32,000 nucleotides of DNA from Candidatus Nitrosopumilus koreensis AR1 (GTDB lineage Archaea > Thermoproteota > Nitrososphaeria > Nitrososphaerales > Nitrosopumilaceae): NCBI RefSeq assembly GCF_000299365.1, contig NC_018655.1:420001-452000 (forward strand), in the 5' to 3' direction. The notes beneath the pieces are model-generated. The model did no database searches, was not told where the DNA came from, and saw only the letters and a program-made list of their open reading frames with translations. Shown here piece by piece: positions 1 to 10,188 of the stretch. Position numbers and translations under genes: made by a program. The first letter of the stretch is position 1. Each line of letters starts with the position of its first letter.

Positions 1-76
1 GGCTCAGGAACAGGCTCAGGAACAGGCTCAGGAACAGGCTCAGGAACAGGCTCAGGAACAGGCTCAGGAACAGGCT
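1..76 (+). repeat. Perfect 12-bp tandem repeat GGCTCAGGAACA x6 plus 4 nt, in frame, encoding (GSGT)n. The array runs off the 5' edge of the window.
   Basis: Read directly: units at 1-12, 13-24, 25-36, 37-48, 49-60 and 61-72 are identical, then GGCT. Frame 1 is open and continuous with ORF 91..459. Confidence 0.95.
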
Positions 77-1225: not shown

Positions 1226-1399
1226 TCTGCTTTAAACAACATCTTTCTATAATCCACGTTTTTGTATATCACTATACTGAACTTTAACCTGGGATCTTCT
1301 TTTTCAACCGTTATAAGCACTCAGACGGTCGGATTAGTTTTGATAATAGTCTGAATCTCTCATATAGATTACAATGTTAATTCAAATTTCTTCAAAAAA

Positions 1400-1873
1400 G
1401 AGTCATCGATATCCATCTTTTATCATCTAGATGGTATCATCGATGGTATTTTCATCATCTTTGATAGAATTAGCCTTGATTTTACCGATGGTATTTTCTT
1501 AATCAATGATAACAAAAGATACTATCTTCTTACATTTTTTTATCATCTTTTTTGCATCTATAGGTACGATGAAAAAAATTCACGCCTAACAATTTTTCCA
1601 TCCTTCTAAAAGATGGCAAAAGATAGAAAAATTATTTATAAAAAATTCAAAATAATTTATAAATTATTTTTTTGATTCAAAACATGAAATTTTGTTTATA
1701 TTCATCATTTCATAGGTGGTCTAATCTTGATTCATCTTTTGCTTATCTATGCCCAAAAGATACTATTTTCATCTCATCGATACCATCCCATCGATGAAAT
1801 CCGTCTTTTTTGTATCTTTTTTTATCGATACCATTGATGAAAAAGATGTCCATCGATAACGTATCGATGGAAT
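1400..1873. repeat. Non-coding iteron field: 7 copies of the palindrome ATCGAT plus GATGGTAT/ATACCATC units, in two oppositely oriented clusters around an AT-rich core
   Basis: ATCGAT starts at 1405, 1439, 1776, 1790, 1824, 1852 and 1863. GATGGTAT is at 1430, 1442 and 1487. Its reverse complement ATACCATC is at 1780, with ATACCATT at 1828. AAAAGATACTAT occurs at 1514 and 1755. The core at about 1621-1710 is almost pure A/T. Confidence 0.8.
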
Positions 1874-1887
1874 AATGCCTTGATTTT

Positions 1888-3228
1888 TTATAAATTAATT
1901 TTTGCGAGTTTCTTTGAAAATACTTTTCTAAAGAAATCTTCTCCAAGATCTTCAAAGTATTGTATGACCATTTTATCCAAGTCTGGCTTGATTGCTTCAT
2001 ACTCTTTTTGACTATTCTCTAGTTTCACCTGTTTTTCCTCTAGAATCTTGATCTTTTCTTCAAGTTGCTTTTTCTCAATTTGTTCTTGTTCTTCTTTCTC
2101 TATTGCAGTCTTCAAACTTAGAGGCTTTCCACATTTAGAACAAAGTTTGGCATCATAGGAGTTTGGCACATCACAAATTTTGCAGATTCTTGGCTTGTTG
2201 ACCAAATCCACTCCTTTGGAACTTGACATGCCATAGTGCTTGAACATGGCCTCTTCTACATCTGAATTCATCATGTGCTCGTATCTTCCAGGCATTTTTG
2301 AGCCTGATGACCATCCGTATCTCTTCTTTTGAAGTGATTCTGTGAGAAACATTCCAGTTCTAGTAGCTCCTGTATGACGAAATAGATTTGGCCAAACTCT
2401 TTTGTGGATTTGCGCAACATCGCAAATTCTCTGTAATCTTTTTCTCATTGCAGCATACGACCATGCCTCTCCATACTTTTTGTCATCCATTGCAATCCAT
2501 AATGGTGCTTCAGGATCAGAGTTGTTTGGATGTTTGTCAAAATATGATGCCAAGTCTGGCACACACTCTATCACTCTTACTGGTCTTGGACCTGTCTTTC
2601 CATCAACTACAATGATTGCACCTCTATCATCAAACTTTACGTGTTTTATTTGGCGACTCAAGATTTCCCCTGGTCTGCAAGCCAAGTCTGAAAACGTATG
2701 AACAAACGCTCTGTCTCTAAGATTCTCTCCACATGCTTTCAGTAACGAATTCTTTTCAGATTCTGTGATTAGCATATCTGCAGTCAGGTTCTCTCTTGGT
2801 TTTCTGACACGAATCCATGAAGTCTCTGTAGGATCTCCAACTTGTTTTTGGTCTCTTGAACCACGTTTTATCCATCTGTAGAAATTCTTTAGAATTTTTT
2901 TGTGGTCTGCAGTTGTGTTTGTCTCTTGTCCGCCTTTGCTGAATTTTTTGTTAAAATTGTAAACAAGCTCTTCCATGTCTTCTTTGCTTGCATCAATCCA
3001 ATCTTTGTTTAGCATTCTTGAGAGACTAAGTATTGTTCCAAGAACCTTTGAGCGTCTTGCATCTGATAGTGATTCGTTTACCAAGACCCGGTCAAATTTC
3101 TTGATTAATTCTACGTTGTTTTGACTCAGGTCTTTTTCCATCAATGCAAAGGTTCTGGTGATAATCTTGTCATAATTGTATAATCTGATCGAGCAATGCT
3201 TTGGGCTTGAAATGTGCTGTTTTGACAT
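1888..3228 (-). CDS. Tyrosine recombinase / integrase with C-terminal zinc ribbon and coiled-coil extension
   Basis: Catalytic pattern: LACRPGEI (Arg I), DGKTGPRPV (Lys), LFRHTGAT (Arg II-His), YGWSS and PGRYEH (Tyr nucleophile). The tail has CKICDVPNSYDAKLCSKCGKP followed by an EEQEQIEKKQLEEKIKILEEKQ heptad-like stretch. The start codon lies 44 nt from the 3' end of the tRNA. Confidence 0.85.
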   Translation of the reverse strand: MSKQHISSPKHCSIRLYNYDKIITRTFALMEKDLSQNNVELIKKFDRVLVNESLSDARRSKVLGTILSLSRMLNKDWIDASKEDMEELVYNFNKKFSKGGQETNTTADHKKILKNFYRWIKRGSRDQKQVGDPTETSWIRVRKPRENLTADMLITESEKNSLLKACGENLRDRAFVHTFSDLACRPGEILSRQIKHVKFDDRGAIIVVDGKTGPRPVRVIECVPDLASYFDKHPNNSDPEAPLWIAMDDKKYGEAWSYAAMRKRLQRICDVAQIHKRVWPNLFRHTGATRTGMFLTESLQKKRYGWSSGSKMPGRYEHMMNSDVEEAMFKHYGMSSSKGVDLVNKPRICKICDVPNSYDAKLCSKCGKPLSLKTAIEKEEQEQIEKKQLEEKIKILEEKQVKLENSQKEYEAIKPDLDKMVIQYFEDLGEDFFRKVFSKKLAKINL

Positions 3229-3272
3229 TCTAGTATATGATATACTGGCAGAGTATTAAACCAGAATGACAA

Positions 3273-3347
3273 TGCTCCCACCGGGATTTGAACCCGGGTC
3301 ACAGCCTTGAGAGGGCTGTATGCTTAACCGGACTACACTATAGGAGC
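3273..3347 (-). tRNA. tRNA-Glu (anticodon CUC), 75 nt, no encoded CCA
   Basis: Manual fold of the reverse complement: acceptor GCTCCTA/TGGGAGC, anticodon stem CAGCC/GGCTG with loop CT-CTC-AA, T arm CCGGG-TTCAAAT-CCCGG, discriminator A. Confidence 0.9.
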
Positions 3348-3460: not shown

Positions 3461-3976
3461 ATGGATTTGAAAAAACTTGCTGAAAGACTAGAGTTATCTG
3501 ATTTTCCTGCAGGTTTAGGGGGGTGTAGAATTTCTGAGAACTTTTTTGATTCATGTGGATACGATGTTATAGTTTTTGATGAACAATCGATTCCTGATCA
3601 AATCGTGCAAATTGATGATGACTATATTGTACTTCATCATGGGACATTTTCTGAAACAAATTCAAAAAAACTCTTGCAATATGATGATCTGAAAATCATT
3701 CAAGATGACTCTTGGGAACTTCGTATGTTTTTATCAAAAATTAAAGAAAAACGATCCTCTTTGTTTGCTGACTTCGCTAAAAACTCCTTGATAGAATCGA
3801 TGTTTTGTTGCCAAAAGACCAAAGAAGCAATTGATAATTCCAATGAATTTTCTCCATGCTGGCAAAAATGTGCGTCATTTTATTTGGCTGATGCAATTGC
3901 ATCATTGAATAATCAACGACTAGGACCTACACACATGCTTAACTCTCTGAGAAGACTTAAAAAAAACTCCTGTTAA
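3461..3976 (+). CDS. Hypothetical protein, probably the N-terminal part of a ~300-aa protein interrupted at an A8 run
   Basis: 171-aa ORF. Its stop follows the A8 run 3959-3966. The frame of the next ORF is already open from 3951. Confidence 0.6.
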   Translation: MDLKKLAERLELSDFPAGLGGCRISENFFDSCGYDVIVFDEQSIPDQIVQIDDDYIVLHHGTFSETNSKKLLQYDDLKIIQDDSWELRMFLSKIKEKRSSLFADFAKNSLIESMFCCQKTKEAIDNSNEFSPCWQKCASFYLADAIASLNNQRLGPTHMLNSLRRLKKNSC

Positions 3977-4043: not shown

Positions 4044-4346
4044 ATGGTAAAATCCACTATTGGATTTAATGATATGGTTAATCAAAACGACTCTTCCCAA
4101 ATTATTCAAAGAAAGTATGACTATTTTGTAAAAAATTCAATGATCTCTGATTGCTATTTTTACCTAGGTTACATCAACAAGGATAACTTCATAAAAATCA
4201 AAGATACGCTAACCCGGAACCCTGATCTAATCCATGTATTAAAAACTGCATTTGATATTGAGGCTGACTCTAATGTCTTGCTACAACAGGCTGATCTTAT
4301 TCAAAATTCTTGTAATGTCTTGCTTGCCGCAGGCTTGAAACAATAA
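4044..4346 (+). CDS. Hypothetical protein, probably the C-terminal part of the 3461..3976 gene
   Basis: 100-aa ORF. The same frame is stop-free for 31 codons upstream (3951-4043) and reads plausibly (TPVNEHISVVTQTVGIERATLVLLER). Confidence 0.5.
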   Translation: MVKSTIGFNDMVNQNDSSQIIQRKYDYFVKNSMISDCYFYLGYINKDNFIKIKDTLTRNPDLIHVLKTAFDIEADSNVLLQQADLIQNSCNVLLAAGLKQ

Positions 4347-4837: not shown

Positions 4838-6307
4838 TTGAAAACAATATTTCTAATATTTCCAATAATTATGGGACTTCTTTTAGGTACTGCATTGTTG
4901 CCATCTGCATCTGCACAATTCAATTCTGCAGGTGGTGTTGACAAAGAAGGAACATGGTACGTTGGTGAAGGTCTCAAAAAAGGAGATTATTTTTCATATA
5001 AAATGTGTCATGTAGATTACAAGGAATGTGCCCAATTTGAATTGGATATGTGGATCAAAGGAGACAGACAAGTTGGCAGTGAAACAAAATGGCTAGCTGA
5101 AGTTGTTGTTTATGATGGCAACAAGGTAATTGTTGGTGAAATGGAATTGGGAAAAATTGCCCCTGAACCAACTGGTGGCAGTGAGTCATTAGGAGTCTAT
5201 CGTGGTGCATTCAAGTCTTCAATAGCATGGCTATCTGCGTTTGCCACTGCTGATGGAAGTGCCGGTGGCAAAGGTCCAAAAGCATTCAGTGCTGCCTCTT
5301 GGGGAAAAATTGGAAACATTGGTGGTGAACAAGTACTTCCACTTGCACTTGAAACAGTCACTGTTCCATCTGGAACTTGGGATACTGTTTTAATTGGATG
5401 GAAGACTGGTGGTTATTCTAGTAAAGTTTGGATTGTAGATGAATTTCCATTTCCTGTAAAGGCTCTTACTTTGACTCATGTTTCAGAAGGAATTCCTCCA
5501 ACTGAATATAAATTTGAATTATTGGACTATAAAGAAAACGTGACCAGCAGTCCTTTTGAAGGAATAGTTTCAACTGCTGATATTTTTCAAGCACAAGGAT
5601 GTGAAACTGATTTTGAAAGAACGTCTAGTGTGAAAAAACCCACAAAGAACTTCTCTTACCAAGTACGTGCATTTTACGGTCCTGAAGATCCTGTTCAAGG
5701 ATGTGAAATGCAATGGCTGATAGAATTCATCAGCAAATATGATGACACTGAATATCTCAATCAGGTTCAGTTTGATGTCTTAGTTGTAGATGATAATTTG
5801 ACTCCTTTGAGATCTCTTGCACAAGAAGAAGGTCGGCAGTACCTCTACTCCCCATCTGGTCAACATCTTATTGATATGATAGTTGAAGAAGAGCCTGGAA
5901 CTGTAAATTATGTTATTTGGATTTATGGTCTCGCACCTGAAGGAATTGCCCCCTCGACCGCTACTGATTATTTGAAAATCCCACTAACTGTGTATCCTGC
6001 TGATGGGAGTGTTATTCCGGACGTACAACCCACAACAGCAATTCCTGCATGGATAAAGAACAATGCTGGTTGGTGGGCAGATGGTGCAATTGACGATAAC
6101 TCGTTTGTTCAAGGAATCCAATTCTTAATTAAAGAAGGAATTATGAAGATTCCACCAACTGCACAAGGAACTGGCTCTTCTAATGAAATCCCTTCTTGGA
6201 TTAAACAAAACGCTGCATGGTGGGCAGATGGTGCAATTGACGATAACTCGTTTGTTCAAGGAATCCAATTCTTAATTAAAGAAGGAATTATGAAAATTTC
6301 TTCTTAA
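4838..6307 (+). CDS. Secreted protein of unknown function with a duplicated Trp-rich C-terminal module
   Basis: Signal-peptide-like N-terminus MKTIFLIFPIIMGLLLGTALLPSASA/QF, using a TTG start (the first ATG, at 4871, would truncate it). The C-terminus has two copies of IP(A/S)WIK(N/Q)NA(G/A)WWADGAIDDNSFVQGIQFLIKEGIMKI. Confidence 0.85.
   Translation: MKTIFLIFPIIMGLLLGTALLPSASAQFNSAGGVDKEGTWYVGEGLKKGDYFSYKMCHVDYKECAQFELDMWIKGDRQVGSETKWLAEVVVYDGNKVIVGEMELGKIAPEPTGGSESLGVYRGAFKSSIAWLSAFATADGSAGGKGPKAFSAASWGKIGNIGGEQVLPLALETVTVPSGTWDTVLIGWKTGGYSSKVWIVDEFPFPVKALTLTHVSEGIPPTEYKFELLDYKENVTSSPFEGIVSTADIFQAQGCETDFERTSSVKKPTKNFSYQVRAFYGPEDPVQGCEMQWLIEFISKYDDTEYLNQVQFDVLVVDDNLTPLRSLAQEEGRQYLYSPSGQHLIDMIVEEEPGTVNYVIWIYGLAPEGIAPSTATDYLKIPLTVYPADGSVIPDVQPTTAIPAWIKNNAGWWADGAIDDNSFVQGIQFLIKEGIMKIPPTAQGTGSSNEIPSWIKQNAAWWADGAIDDNSFVQGIQFLIKEGIMKISS
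6071..6294 (+). repeat. Intragenic direct repeat: two identical 77-bp copies (6071-6147 and 6218-6294), period 147 bp
   Basis: Direct comparison of the two stretches TGGTGGGCAGATGGTGCAATTGACGATAACTCG...GGAATTATGAA. Confidence 0.95.
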
Positions 6308-7272: not shown

Positions 7273-7914
7273 ATGGCAATGCCCACTGGTGATTCTATGA
7301 GAACTGGCGATGAGTCTGAGAGAACAACTGATGTGAATTCCTACCAGAGAACCTGTATGGACTTTATCGAAGACATCTCCCACGACTACGAGGCTTGGGT
7401 TGATTATTACAAACTGCCTGAGGATGAGGACAAAATACGAAGAAGTGGAATTCGTGCAACTATCACTAAAACAAATACTTGGATTGCCAAGGTTGCACAA
7501 TCAATCCCTGCAGTTGATGTTGTGATGAATGACGGCATTCAAAAGATGGCCGAATCCACTGCTGGAAAACCACTCCAAATTGGAGTGTTTGTAAACAAAA
7601 CTGCAAGCTATACTGAAGCAAAACCTGGCATAATTGATGTCAATGTAAAGGCTAGTGGAAGAGAGGGACGAAAGGTAAAACTTGGCTATCATTTCAAAGA
7701 TGACCGATTCCGTGTAGAGTCTACCTGTGGGGCATACATTGATGAATCCAATCTACCTACTGAAGAGTTTGACTTGATGGATATTCATCTAAAACTACGT
7801 GCAGAAAATGCAAAACAACGAGACGTTATTTCCTTTACAGTTACAGTTTATGAGATGGAGAACGGCGTTGAAACTGAAAAAAGAGGCCTAAGCACAATAG
7901 TACACATTGTTTGA
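7273..7914 (+). CDS. Hypothetical protein (213 aa)
   Basis: Long ORF with non-repetitive composition. No recognisable motif. Confidence 0.6.
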   Translation: MAMPTGDSMRTGDESERTTDVNSYQRTCMDFIEDISHDYEAWVDYYKLPEDEDKIRRSGIRATITKTNTWIAKVAQSIPAVDVVMNDGIQKMAESTAGKPLQIGVFVNKTASYTEAKPGIIDVNVKASGREGRKVKLGYHFKDDRFRVESTCGAYIDESNLPTEEFDLMDIHLKLRAENAKQRDVISFTVTVYEMENGVETEKRGLSTIVHIV

Positions 7915-7924
7915 TTTGGAAATT

Positions 7925-10188
7925 TTATCTAACAGGCTGCATCTCTGATTCCATTGCTGGCTCTTCTAGATAATCAATAAACTTGCCAGTGTTTTCTAGT
8001 TTTATTGAATTGATTTCATTCAAATCCTCAAAGGAATTCATCTTCAAAAATCCTTGTGATGCTGTATACAACACATCATCGATGTAAAACGTCCTTGCAT
8101 CATTCATTCCATAGTATCTCCAGTCATTGTCTGAATGGGTGATTGTTCCTTTTGCATCGAATCCGTTTGTCTTATCCAAATCAAAACGTAAAATCCACTC
8201 CATCTGTTATAGTCTGGTGCAAACATTTTGGAGCTTGTAATGTCGTCTAGGCTTTTAACATCTGCACTTATTGGAATGGATAAAACATTTCTTGTTTTAT
8301 CAAAAAAGAATGCCTTGTGGTTGTGCAATGCTTCTGATTGAGTGGAACTGTCTCCAATTATGTAGTCATCTACAACTTTGGGGTTACTTACATCTGCCAC
8401 GTTGAATAATGCGATTTTGACACCCAATTGCTGAACTCTTCCATTGTCTGTTTCTTTAGTATCTCTTCCTATTCCTATGACATGTTCTTCATCATATGGG
8501 TGAAGATAGTTTGAAAATCCTGGAATCTTTAATTCTCCTAGTATTTTTGGTGTGTCTGTTGATAAATCAATTACAAAGAATGGGTCAATTTGCTGAAATG
8601 TTACCAAATAGAGCCTGTCTCCCATGAATCTTGATGAAAATATGCTCTCATCAGGTGCAATGTCTTCAAGTTCTCCTACTATGTTTAACTGCTCATCTAA
8701 GACATATACTGCATTTGATCTGACTGTTCCTTCATGTTGAATGTAGTATTCTGTGGTGGTTGCAACTCTGAATCTATCTCCTGACTCATCCATTGAGAAT
8801 TGATTTAGCAATCTTCCTGGGACTGTTCCCTTTGCAACATACTCTATTTTGTCTTCGTCAATTGAAATCTTATGAATAATTGTCTTTCTTGTATCTTCTT
8901 GAATTTTTGCATCGTACTCGTTTAATGCCTCTCTTATTTTCTCAAACAACTCTTCTCTTTCTTGTTTGTCCATCTTGTTGTAAGAGTCCTGCATCATTTC
9001 AGAAATCTTTGCCCATTGTTCTGATGTATTCAATGAAGAATTATTTTGGATTGATTTAATCTGATCTTGAATGCTGTTTGGTAGCAATGGTACGATTACA
9101 TCGTAGAATCTATCTCGTGATGAATTTTCATAAAATCCAAATGGCATATTTTGTTGATATGTTAAATAGAAATTATTCTCTGAAACATAAAATGAGCCAG
9201 TATATCCCATCAAGAAAGTTTCAGAATTTACTGTATCTCCAAATATATCAATTGCAGTAAGTGTGTTAAAGTTTGAAAATTCTTCTACATTGTCAAAGTA
9301 AAATGCATCTGGGGTCATGATTCTTACAGAATCTTCCATTATTACTGGTAGTCTTGGATATTGGTGATTGACATAGCTGTTTGTAACAAAATATGCGTAA
9401 TCTCCAATCATTCTGGCATCACTGAAATGACCATCAATGGAGTAATCTTTGAGAATGATTGGATTTTCCTTGTCTGATACATCTACGATTAATGCATGAG
9501 TGACTGGATTGTAAGAAGGTCTTGGAATAAAGTCAAACTGTGGTATTATTTCCTCATCGCTTTGTCCATTGTAAAATATCACCAATCTGTCACCATTGAG
9601 GAACATGTTGTGAATGTATTGCGATTCGATATCTAGAGCGATTTTGAGAATTAATTTTGCGTCTTCTGCAGGATATGCATCAATTATTGAAAGTGTGTTT
9701 CTTGAAACAATGTACACGTACTTTGAGTCGTTTTTGAGATAATCTGGCTCATCAACATTTTGCACTTGGACGTTTGTAGTGGAGTAGTCGGTTCCTCCCA
9801 TTTTAGAAACTCCGTCTCCTACACTTGGTTCTGCTGTTGGAACTGGTGCCTCTGTATTTTCTGCTGATTCAAACATTACCATATCCTCATCCATTGCCAT
9901 GTTTCTAACAACTCTGGTATCGTAGAATATTTCTCCTCCAAACATTGATGATGCTTCAAGTATGGATGCCAATTCTTCTTGTGATGCTATTTTCTTTATC
10001 TCGTTTGTTCCATCAAAAAACTCTGAAATTGATTTATCTACATAGATAACTTCTGGTTCTAAGGTCTCTGTAACTATTCTAATTTGGGGTTCTTGGTCAA
10101 AAGGTATAGCATACATGACTCCTGCTGTTACTATTACCGAAACGATTACTGCAATTGGAATTATTATTTTTGAGCTCATTTTCATCAT
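7925..10188 (-). pseudogene. Membrane-anchored or secreted beta-propeller-domain protein (COG4880 / Beta_propel-like), split by a 1-nt frameshift near 8183-8190
   Basis: Track ORFs 8104..10188 and 7925..8203 overlap by 100 nt. The reading ...NRWSGFYV in one frame continues as FDLDKTNGFDAKGTITH...RTFYIDDVLYTASQGFLKMN in the other, a single recognisable family C-terminus. N-terminal TM helix: KIIIPIAVIVSVIVTAGVMYAI. Confidence 0.8.

Follow-up and report, generated by a model that had tools for sequence, protein, structure and literature searches.

The NitKor-E2 integrase and the adjoining gap

The window (the whole stretch of 32,000 nucleotides of DNA that was analysed, in whose coordinates all positions below are given) comes from Candidatus Nitrosopumilus koreensis AR1, a marine ammonia-oxidising archaeon, and the locus described here lies inside the published integrated element NitKor-E2. 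Krupovic et al. (2019, PMC6563490) give this element the coordinates 399943-423283, the target tRNA-Glu(CTC), the att sequence TGCTCCCACCG, and the integrase NKOR.02405. Adding 420,000 to the window coordinates reproduces NKOR.02400 and NKOR.02405 exactly, with the att at 3273-3283. The features of the locus are as follows.

1226-1887: gap of 662 bp between convergent genes
1357..1369, - strand: degenerate attR-like site 'DIST', reading ATCTATATGAGAG, which directly repeats the tRNA-Glu 3' end in decayed form
1377..1393, + strand: inner-end sequence TTAATTCAAATTTCTTC, the inverted partner of the trailer element CTGGTTTAATACTCT (3250-3264, - strand)
1391..1625, + strand: left iteron module, with units ATCGATG(R), GATGGTAT, and CATCTTTT
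1467..1487, + strand: framework box GAATTAGCCTTGATTTTACCG, at the centre of the left module
1578..1588, - strand: family-wide box TAGGCGTGAAT, in the context TGTTAGGCGTGAATTTTT, the sole window copy of TAGGCRYRAAW
1621..1710, no strand: central AT-rich core, a candidate unwinding element, 89% A+T
1676..1883, - strand: right iteron module, with ATCGAT at 1776, 1790, 1824, 1852, and 1863 and inverted GATGGTAT units
1884..1903, no strand: second AT-rich core TTTTTTATAAATTAATTTTT, which takes in the stop codon of the integrase at 1888-1890 (...KINL*)
1888..3228, - strand: tyrosine integrase of 446 aa, with a catalytic domain, a C-terminal zinc ribbon, and a coiled-coil tail
3253-3272: conserved 20-nt tRNA trailer
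3273..3347, - strand: tRNA-Glu(CTC), identified by ARAGORN and Rfam
3273-3283: attL TGCTCCCACCG, the 3' end of tRNA-Glu (att sequence from Table S2 of Krupovic et al. 2019)

The gap carries no annotation in the published NitKor-E2, and a search of a phage database with its whole sequence gave no match. It holds no open reading frame longer than 41 aa, save for an 85-aa frame, judged spurious, that shares sequence with the integrase gene. Degraded coding sequence, which the sequence-only reading had named as an outcome that would undo its proposal, is ruled out, as orthologous modules differ by out-of-frame indels that break every reading frame and no ORF is conserved. That reading had described a 660-bp non-coding gap between cargo ORFs and the integrase; the length and the non-coding nature hold, and the cargo label is doubtful. 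The left ORFs may not be cargo of the integrase-proximal unit because the attR-like site at 1357-1369 separates them from the repeat field.

The integrase, NKOR.02405, is annotated as a XerC/XerD-family integrase; it matches the Pfam Phage_integrase family (weakly), a zinc ribbon, and a PHROG integrase (1e-12), and XerA 5HXY aligns to its residues 144-290. Its target tRNA-Glu is present without an integrase in N. maritimus SCM1 and in locus L275. The attR-like site DIST recurs across the family at 315-2400 bp past the integrase stop: in 404 kb of integrase loci, TC[TC]CTATGAGAG with at most one mismatch was found 22 times on the integrase strand and twice on the other, compared with eight times in 1.62 Mb of control DNA. 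The DIST consensus is identical to the tRNA end TCCCGATGGGAGCA at 11/14 positions, with near-perfect copies in L098, L135, and L144, while the window copy matches at only 7/14. Krupovic et al. (2019, PMC6563490) list the same att. Other readings of DIST (an inverted tRNA-like half, an empty-site host flank, a promoter, or the start of a small ORF) were rejected because it repeats the tRNA 3' end directly, in degenerate form, and matches the published att. The consensus TGGTTYAAWWCTCTG is present in every locus within the tRNA trailer and, at most loci, also beside DIST.

By its sequence, then, 1357-1369 looks like an attR. No att repeat of at least 10 nt was found within 10 kb to the left, and the perfect att repeat given by Krupovic et al. 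(2019, PMC6563490) lies 23 kb away, beyond the window. If 1357-1369 is an attR, the integrase-proximal unit would consist of the integrase and the field only (~1.9 kb). Units of integrase plus field only, with 315-620 bp between the integrase stop and attR, occur at nine loci. The field keeps its place beside the integrase stop, not beside attR: in L002, L011, L090, and L123, cargo separates it from attR by 0.85-1.9 kb, and it still adjoins the stop.

Repeats, modules, and AT-rich cores

The hexamer ATCGAT occurs 11 times in the window, and seven of these copies (1405, 1439, 1776, 1790, 1824, 1852, and 1863) fall within 1405-1868. The other four are scattered at 3586, 3796, 8078, and 14378, as the sequence-only reading had judged by eye when it pointed to seven copies within 470 bp. 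When 11 sites were placed uniformly, none of 200,000 trials put at least seven of them in 470 bp, and 22 put at least five there. Exact GATGGTAT units stand at 1430, 1442, and 1487 (+ strand) and at 1780 (- strand), with a single extra copy in the remaining 31 kb of the window; the forward and inverted units thus lie where they had been reported, and the unit at 1828 reads AATGGTAT, as had been written. The reported pair of AAAAGATACTAT repeats was also found, as (C)AAAAGATACTAT at 1513/1514 and 1754/1755. Counted against the rest of the window, as a check of motif enrichment, CATCGAT (8 vs 3), AAAAGAT (9 vs 18), and exact GATGGTAT are each 20-fold to >100-fold enriched in the gap; CCATCGAT occurs there four times and nowhere else. 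The density of CATC/GATG is 52 per kb in the field vs 12 per kb elsewhere, making this the densest 476-bp stretch of the window; the helical phasing of these units in the window does not differ from random placement. Variants reading ATCAAT and ATTGAT resemble deaminated ATCGAT.

The gap is built of two homologous modules of ~230 bp, mutually inverted, which share a central AT-rich palindromic core. The left module matches our module profile with an nhmmer E-value of 1e-62 and the right one with 1.6e-34 on the - strand. Each contains about a dozen short repeats, of which ATCGATG(R) often appears as the 10-bp palindrome YCATCGATGR. Over 312 bp, the left module is ~70% identical to positions 7645-7949 of L011, with the iterons conserved, and the right module is 73% identical to positions 1105-1406 of L102 over 329 bp. 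The framework box GAATTAGCCTTGATTTTACCG is conserved in modules of L002 (two copies), L011 (two), L089, L102, and L119.

The opposed repeat clusters that the sequence-only reading saw across a nearly pure A/T stretch are present, and they arise because the two homologous modules lie inverted around the core. This core (1621-1710) is 89% A+T vs 66-71% in its flanks. It includes TTTATAAA units at 1635 and 1656 (we count two to three such units in all) and a perfect palindrome with 14-nt arms at 1649-1670, and AATTTATAAATTATTTT is invariant across six aligned modules. In close relatives, similarity ends exactly at the second core (1884-1903).

Related loci and the family-wide box

Related Nitrosopumilus loci carry the same module framework right after the same tRNA-Glu integrase, with other short repeats set into it: ATCTTACCAAG in an 11-bp tandem, CATTAATGA/CATTGATG, CCTATCGATAGG, CTAAGAT, and CCAAGCTTGG. 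The window's own ATCGAT-type iterons, which were to be sought in related elements, also occur in L011 and L102. In orthologous modules (70-79% identity), the iterons are the best-conserved blocks. The cores of the relatives are made of 2-3 repeated AT-rich units, a likeness to bacterial DUEs. L002 has tandem arrays of up to three modules, in which the boxes GGCACAAATT and AATTTGTGCC stand inverted, ~45 nt to each side of the cores. Like specificity cassettes, modules that differ in their iterons can be found stacked or exchanged. About three-quarters of the related integrase loci have no strong iteron field; N. piranensis D3C, considered as a cultured carrier, has the integrase and no obvious field.

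A second element of the field reaches further than the module framework. The pattern TAGGC[AG][CT][AG]AA[AT] has 27 matches in the 29.3 kb directly past integrase stops, compared with nine in the remaining 215.7 kb of these loci and nine in 1.62 Mb of controls. Across the wider family, this 11-nt box, TAGGCRYRAAW, is enriched about 22-fold past the integrase stop, often as a pair with copies 55 nt apart, and it extends to loci whose integrases are only about 45% identical. Neither the window's 30 kb of host DNA nor the empty-site loci contain it. The recurrence of the framework, its non-coding nature, and the conservation of its repeats together mean that a function as a protein-binding array is well supported by sequence comparison. 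The field is a member of a previously undescribed family of modular repeat arrays, putatively protein-binding, that are arranged around an AT-rich core. The available part of Krupovic et al. (2019, PMC6563490) describes no non-coding iteron field, module family, family-wide box, or internal degenerate attR.

Possible functions and known counterparts

An origin is the best-fitting architecture, and as such is partly supported. The sequence-only reading had proposed initiator-binding repeats around an unwinding element; the arrangement is real, and the initiator part of the claim is unsupported. Since no initiator gene was found, the origin is a role that we infer. Our preferred reading, held with less than even confidence, is that 1391-1887 acts in cis as the place where a small element integrated at tRNA-Glu assembles nucleoprotein, in the manner of an iteron/DUE-type replicator whose initiator would be provided in trans. 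On this reading, proteins that recognise specific DNA sequences, probably as dimers, would occupy the iterons of both flanks, a factor shared by all these elements would bind the family-wide box TAGGCRYRAAW, and melting of the AT-rich core would let the host replisome load on the excised circle. The iteron-binding initiator would need an outside source (a helper element, a virus, or the host) because the unit encodes the integrase alone, with no initiator nearby. No Rep, primase, helicase, or Orc1/Cdc6 gene was found in the integrase-proximal ~13 kb or in any related locus, nor orc1/cdc6 anywhere in the window, and none of the NitKor-E2 gene lines in the available part of the published tables names a replication initiator. 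Likewise, we found no circular or episomal contigs and, among viral contigs, no helper with arrays of the ATCGATG or CTTACCAAG type. In favor of a replicator, the field is retained in integrase-only units, although a plain integrase/attP pair would not need it; against it, arrays of up to three modules, as in L002, would be unusual for an origin.

Iteron replicons combine a conserved scaffold and a common box with iterons that vary from element to element, the pattern seen here. Among these, the RK2/pPS10-type oriV and the SaPI ori are iteron-type origins, and the SaPI iterons flank an AT-rich region. Like them, the field has multiple short element-specific repeats (8 CATCGAT, 4 exact GATGGTAT, and 9 AAAAGAT in 662 bp) on both sides of AT-rich repeated units that form a putative unwinding element; the repeat sequence varies by element while the layout is conserved, with an extra common box, and the host element is integrative, as for SaPI. 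Iteron origins differ in lying beside or within their own initiator gene, whereas the field has no cognate Rep gene in cis, lies at the 3' end of an integrase, and has modules that are duplicated, inverted, or stacked; its replication is something we infer. Satellites of geminiviruses and nanoviruses that lack an initiator have iterons recognised in trans by the Rep of a helper. The intergenic regions of these viruses resemble the field in combining a conserved scaffold with lineage-specific iterons and differ from it in their rolling-circle replication, nonanucleotide stem-loop, eukaryotic hosts, and lack of an integrase. Archaeal origins have ORB or mini-ORB repeats around a DUE, beside orc1/cdc6 (PMC4010727). 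They share with the field an AT-rich region between opposed repeats (here, two inverted modules flanking a candidate DUE) and repeat sequences that differ between origins; the field departs from them in having no adjacent orc1/cdc6 and many repeats of 8-14 bp vs few ORBs of 20-35 bp.

Control of integrase expression or excision is a possible, if doubtful, role for such an array. The TTTATAAA cores would then be archaeal TATA boxes, of which the one on the stop codon could drive an antisense RNA, and the iterons and box would serve as operators, bound by repressors, activators, or directionality factors from the host or from a co-resident or helper element. This agrees with the constant attachment of the field to the integrase 3' end, with the TATA-like palindrome on the stop codon, with palindromic 10-mers that are typical operators of dimeric regulators, and with a family-wide box specific to these integrase loci. 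There is also an archaeal precedent in SNJ2, whose small accessory DNA-binding proteins Orf2 and Orf3 stimulate the integrase (PMC8371274). However, no gene lies beyond the cores to be regulated, the modules sit between the integrase 3' end and attR, integrase-only units have no regulator gene, and >20 binding units over 500 bp with duplication of whole modules go far above the usual operator need. That the modules are instead non-coding RNA genes transcribed from the TATA-like cores is very improbable. TATA-like sequences and T-runs bound each module, but T-runs of 6-7 inside the modules on both strands would end archaeal transcription early, and variation between modules swaps whole repeat families with no compensatory pairs. 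A known RNA family was rejected, as Rfam finds only the tRNA above noise (next best, RNA-OUT at E=1); T-runs of at least 6 on both strands and the lack of an Rfam hit argue against a long RNA product.

The sequence-only reading had also offered arm-type sites for the adjacent integrase or sites for the small wHTH proteins encoded next door. The wHTH proposal is disfavoured: L011 and L102 have ATCGAT-type iterons without those genes, and neighbouring wHTH and ORFan genes do not co-occur with such iterons. It is improbable that the repeats are arm-type or accessory integrase sites that form the P arm of attP on circularisation, since the iterons do not track the integrase and the field is tied to its stop codon rather than to attR. 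The left module does start ~20 bp inside the attR-like site and would abut attP in a 1.9-kb circle; the integrase is also the only protein common to all the elements, and the box is conserved wherever its family occurs. Yet unrelated iterons sit beside near-identical integrases (91% for the window and L011; ~97% at the 3' ends for L089, L119, and L123), L011 combines two iteron types with one integrase, and the distances of 0.85-1.9 kb from attR given above compare with sites within about 150-250 bp of the crossover core in lambda attP. Sequence searches match the integrase to the XerA catalytic domain and a C-terminal zinc ribbon, with no arm-binding domain detectable, and the term "arm-type" does not appear in a review of archaeal tyrosine recombinases. 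The co-variation of repeats with the integrase that marks lambda attP arms is missing for the iterons; the box does co-occur with the integrase family, so the box alone may still be read as arm-type. Lambda attP arms, cer, and psi resemble the field in placing a few hundred bp of repeats beside a tyrosine recombinase gene; the field differs in repeats that do not track the recombinase, in its tie to the stop codon, and in having far more sites.

We regard as similarly improbable that the field has no function and is decaying as part of a dead element, its repeats produced by replication slippage and gene conversion in an AT-rich spacer. The decayed attR copy of the window, the many related loci with little or no field, the deaminated look of ATCAAT and ATTGAT, and the lack of helical phasing would all suit decay; it is hard to square with iterons that are the most conserved blocks of orthologous modules at 70-79% identity, the same motif kept in both orientations in two modules of different lineage, framework boxes and a core invariant across genomes, and a box that extends to integrases only about 45% identical. 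Because the window attR is decayed (7/14), this particular unit may no longer excise, and its field could be a relic. Other classes fit less well. Integron cassettes pair an ORF with an attC site and enter at attI beside the integrase gene; likeness to them is limited to module exchange at conserved cores, as the modules are non-coding and the integrase uses a tRNA att site. A partition centromere (parC/parS-like) would come with genes for a partition NTPase and adaptor, and no locus has partition genes; L011 does have two clusters of 11-bp tandem repeats. CRISPR arrays alternate repeats of 25-40 nt with spacers at a regular period, whereas the repeats here measure 6-14 nt, face both ways, and have irregular spacing.

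A link to viruses is offered by the tailed-virus contig L383, in which a non-coding field with three copies of the family-wide box and its own iterons lies upstream of an operon encoding small terminase, large terminase, and portal; such fields therefore also occur on an autonomous replicon. We think it quite unlikely that the window's field is a hitch-hiking signal that mimics a helper-virus packaging site or a combined origin-and-packaging region, so that a thaumarchaeal virus replicates and encapsidates the minimal element and module-specific iterons match different helpers. Units of integrase plus field require a vehicle for horizontal spread, and the stacking and swapping of modules with differing iterons would suit such helper specificity. 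However, L383 is a single viral example and its iterons differ from the window's; no viral contig has the iterons of the window or of L011, the remaining viral box matches are chance or coding sequence, and a 1.9-kb genome is far under capsid size. An IMG/VR scan for GAATTAGCCTYGATT, CTTACCAAGATCTTACC, and paired ATCGATGG returned chance or coding matches only, such as 18-bp coding tandems in L248. Paired-box and 16-mer scans of viral contigs gave mostly conserved phage genes or chance matches; L383 is the one convincing case, with L400/L405 in doubt. L383 and L098 share a 38-nt match, which was discounted as low-complexity. Also unlikely, though a little less so, is that Nitrosopumilus harbors ~1.9-kb satellites made of an integrase and exchangeable modules that mimic helper origin or packaging regions and are swapped at the AT-rich cores. 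Such satellites would share the scaffold and the box and carry iterons specific to a virus or plasmid helper; whichever helper infects the cell could then copy and spread an element that has no replication or structural gene.

We know of no experiments on the replication, excision, or spread of the many cryptic elements integrated in ammonia-oxidising archaea, most of which, to our knowledge, have no recognisable replication protein. The sequence rules of the field (a box shared by the family, a scaffold shared by the subfamily, and iterons particular to each element) provide a concrete handle on replication and spread. They define probes for the pull-down of binding proteins, and iteron matching could link orphan elements to their helpers. 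The field is also a candidate autonomously replicating sequence for the vectors still missing in thaumarchaeal genetics. If it is only regulatory or a relic, the result is a modest refinement of the annotation of NitKor-E2. These predictions can be tested because Ca. N. koreensis AR1 is cultivated.

In the available part of their study, Krupovic et al. (2019, PMC6563490) suggest that a wHTH protein might initiate the replication of small elements in which no replication gene is recognisable, as in iteron plasmids, and describe NitUzo-E2, a thaumarchaeal cryptic integrated element of 2.6 kb. The proposed 1.9-kb unit of integrase and field would be smaller than any element in that part of the study.

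The integrase-adjacent gap and its inverted modules

The iteron field lies between convergent genes and adjoins the 3' end of a tyrosine integrase gene.

Features of the gap and its surroundings (window coordinates)
ends at 1225: wHTH-like ORF of 65 aa, left neighbour of the gap
1226-1887: gap, 662 bp, 28.5% G+C
1391-1625: forward module
1676-1883: reverse module
1888-1890, minus strand: stop codon of the tyrosine integrase (446 aa), right neighbour of the gap
3273-3347: tRNA-Glu(CTC), with the integrase start 45 bp from its 3' end

The window is CP003842.1 420,001-452,000 of Ca. Nitrosopumilus koreensis AR1: adding 420,000 to its gene coordinates reproduces the published NKOR.02400 and NKOR.02405. 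This places the locus at the integrase end of NitKor-E2, a cryptic integrated element of 23.3 kb that occupies tRNA-Glu(CTC) and has the att TGCTCCCACCG (Krupovic et al. 2019, PMC6563490). The searchable parts of that paper's text and supplements contain neither an annotation of the gap nor an iteron field. The remainder of the window is core chromosome, with heme synthesis, Suf, and PGK genes.

The sequence-only reading had described a cluster of ATCGAT here. Indeed, 7 of the 11 copies in the window fall within 1405-1868, and none of 200,000 trials with uniformly placed sites put at least 7 of 11 inside 470 bp. The GATGGTAT and AAAAGATACTAT units have the positions and orientations it reported, and the stretch it called AT-rich (about 1621-1710) measures 89% A+T, with a perfect palindrome inside (1649-1670). 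Within the window the motifs are also enriched: counts in the gap and in the rest of the window are 8 and 3 for CATCGAT, 4 and 0 for CCATCGAT, and 9 and 18 for AAAAGAT, an enrichment of 20-fold to >100-fold, and the density of CATC/GATG reaches its maximum for the whole window in the field.

The clusters that had been seen to face each other are two homologous modules in inverted orientation, since one runs forward, one runs in reverse, and both share the central core. We gathered integrase relatives from genomes (16 loci) and metagenomes (59 loci); the closest all lie 45 bp after tRNA-Glu(CTC). The left half of the field (1388-1671) is ~70% identical to positions 7645-7949 of one relative's locus, L011, and the right half is 73% identical to 1105-1406 of another, L102. 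An alignment of six stretches has a shared order of iterons, box GAATTAGCCTYGATTCTACAG, iterons again, a AATTTGTGCC-like box, and the AT-rich core, in which A(A/T)TAATTTATAAATTATTTTT is invariant. Another core, which encodes ...KINL*, overlaps the stop codon of the integrase. A module profile search of 1.05 Mb gave matches only beside the integrase (window, L002, L011, L089, and L102).

Iteron variation, module exchange, and a family-wide box

Iterons of related modules
L011 proximal and L002 first modules: ~12 ATCTTACCAAG units in strict 10.5-11-bp register
L002 second module: CATTAATGA / CATTGATG
L089 and L102 modules: (C)CTATCGATAG(G)
L119 module: CTAAGAT / CCTATC
L091 module: CCAAGCTTGG

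Many iteron units are 10-bp palindromes with a 6-bp centre, which suggests that they may be bound by dimeric proteins. Between orthologous modules, the conserved blocks are the iterons and boxes. Degraded coding sequence, a possibility raised in the sequence-only reading, does not hold, as these modules have no ORF in common and their indels are not multiples of three in length. Together with T-runs of 6-7 inside the modules on both strands and the lack of any match in an Rfam search of the modules, this pattern points to a probable function at the DNA level.

The modules are exchanged as units at the cores, by homologous or site-specific recombination, because similarity among close relatives stops abruptly there. 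L089, L119, and L123 keep ~97% identity across the 3' end of the integrase as far as the stop-codon core and are unrelated beyond it; the window and L011 have the integrase (91%) and the distal module in common, but differ in the proximal one. The integrase C-terminal tails (window 1888-2200 and relatives) are coiled-coil-like past a conserved zinc ribbon (CxxC...CxxC) and hypervariable between loci; therefore, the mosaic boundary of the elements begins inside the integrase 3' end.

In more distant relatives (L009, L006, L007, L013, L093, L096, L099, and L104), the integrase is followed by iteron fields of a different make-up. These fields share an 11-nt box, TAGGC[AG][CT][AG]AA[AT], mostly as TTTTAGGCACGAAATT.

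Matches to the family-wide box
730 bp downstream of the integrase stop (41 loci): 27 in 29.3 kb
remainder of these loci: 9 in 215.7 kb
unrelated viral DNA: 9 in 1.62 Mb

The box is frequently doubled, as direct copies 55 nt apart, and is present with integrases as low as ~45% identity; the window has a single copy (1578-1588, minus strand) and none elsewhere. A pronounced iteron field occurs in about a quarter of loci, so the field is common, not universal.

Element boundaries and candidate functions

A 12-nt motif, TC[TC]CTATGAGAG, occurs 315-2400 bp past the integrase stop, with 22 copies on the integrase strand and 2 on the other in integrase loci, and is rare in controls. It repeats the 3' end of the tRNA directly and in degenerate form (TCCCGATGGGAGCA matches TCCCTATGAGAGAA at 11/14 positions), with near-perfect copies in L098, L135, and L144. 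The motif corresponds to the att given for tRNA-Glu elements in PMC6563490, and we read it as a putative attR. The window's copy (1357-1369, minus strand) is more decayed, at 7/14 versus the tRNA end. Because N. maritimus SCM1, Nitrosopumilus sp. SW, and L275 carry the tRNA and upstream host gene without the integrase, the integrase segment is evidently an insertion. The integrase-proximal unit would be 1370-3283, the integrase plus a 520-bp field and nothing more. Eight other loci have this layout (315-620 bp to attR, no ORF of at least 80 aa). In L002, L011, L090, and L123, a cargo gene puts 0.85-1.9 kb between field and attR, and the field is still at the integrase stop codon despite it. 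Outside the window, 3.3 kb to the left of the window's copy, G+C content changes at a second, variant attR-like site (7563-7605 of L001, the locus extended leftwards). These internal degenerate copies, with the perfect att repeat published 23 kb away (PMC6563490), suggest that the 23-kb NitKor-E2 may be a tandem or accreted composite.

The field has the same parts list as an iteron/DUE replicator: many element-specific short repeats flank the core on both sides, repeated AT-rich units make up that core, and the family's common box is the third part. Its layout also fits the general archaeal origin plan (PMC4010727). To this extent the origin proposed by the sequence-only reading stands; against it, ORF searches of the window element and related loci found no initiator gene and no episomal form was seen, and we hold the replicator reading, the likeliest of those considered, only tentatively. 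With none encoded in these elements, any initiator would need to be supplied in trans. Retention of the field in units otherwise encoding only an integrase argues that it may supply a second cis function beyond attP.

One lead towards a trans-acting partner, a single case, is L383 (IMGVR_UViG_3300030419_001068), a contig from a tailed virus. Its operon for a Zn-finger protein, the small terminase, the large terminase, and the portal is preceded by ~1 kb of non-coding DNA (around 7700-8450). There, three TAGGCACGRAW boxes, of which two are spaced 56 nt apart, occur together with iterons peculiar to this contig (TATCTGGAGGGATT x3, GTGATTAAT x3) and an AT-rich CCATATAT repeat zone. The 8.9 kb of L383 analysed include no integrase homolog.

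An array that regulates excision, or the expression of the integrase, would explain why the field is tightly tied to the integrase 3' end and why its cores are TATA-like; however, it comes with neither a target gene nor a regulator gene, and we consider it somewhat unlikely. A packaging or hitch-hiking signal, with L383 as its sole support, is quite improbable. The arm-type integrase sites offered by the sequence-only reading are very improbable for the iterons, whose type does not track the integrase and whose field can lie 0.85-1.9 kb from attR; the family-wide box is a possible arm site. Relic DNA, very unlikely, and non-coding RNA genes, barely credible, both fit the conservation pattern poorly. 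The neighbouring wHTH protein, also suggested as iteron binder, gains no support, as its genes are missing from loci that have the same iterons. For small elements, PMC6563490 raises wHTH proteins as possible replication initiators, on the model of iteron plasmids, purely as speculation.

The architecture of the field is of a known kind. In the literature searched, there was no description of integrase-linked modular fields with exchangeable iterons, of the family-wide box, or of 1.9-kb integrase-plus-field units, and nothing linked Nitrosopumilus with iterons; archaeal satellites were reported only in other phyla. That the integrase-plus-field units are minimal satellites, equipped with origin or packaging modules that each suit a particular helper, seems distinctly unlikely.

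Further features around the insertion site

The two copies of a ~15-bp inverted repeat, TGGTTYAAWWCTCTG, are found immediately internal to the attR-like site (1377-1393, plus strand) and within the conserved trailer of 20 nt that follows the tRNA (3250-3264, minus strand). Both resemble the tRNA T-loop and may serve the integrase as core-type sites or act as promoter elements. Beyond the attR-like site, a conserved 38-nt stretch (window 1303-1330 / L123 1590-1627, 87% identity) holds a 5-bp hairpin, ACCGT-N13-ACGGT, in which a C-to-T change preserves the pairing as G-U. Many metagenome contigs (L089-L099 and others) start 0-65 nt upstream of tRNA-Glu, assembly breaks that are consistent with population heterogeneity (occupied versus empty sites, or different elements).

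The host gene beside the tRNA is split here into ORFs of 171 aa (3461-3976) and 100 aa (4044-4346), and forms one ORF (291-294 aa) in L011, in N. maritimus SCM1, and in some 2000 relatives; the split may reflect a pseudogene or a sequencing error. At window 1-70 (L001 9524-9631), ~7 copies of a 12-bp tandem repeat, AACAGGCTCAGG, encode the (GSGT)n linker of a 197-aa ORFan whose end is a wHTH-like segment. A secreted 489-aa protein (4838-6307) has a duplicated C-terminal domain of ~45 aa (IPxWIKNNAxWWADGAIDDNSFVQGIQFLIKEGIMKI), which is also C-terminal in a 1110-aa protein of L001 and in the plastocyanin/HYR protein that the L011 and L002 elements carry as cargo.
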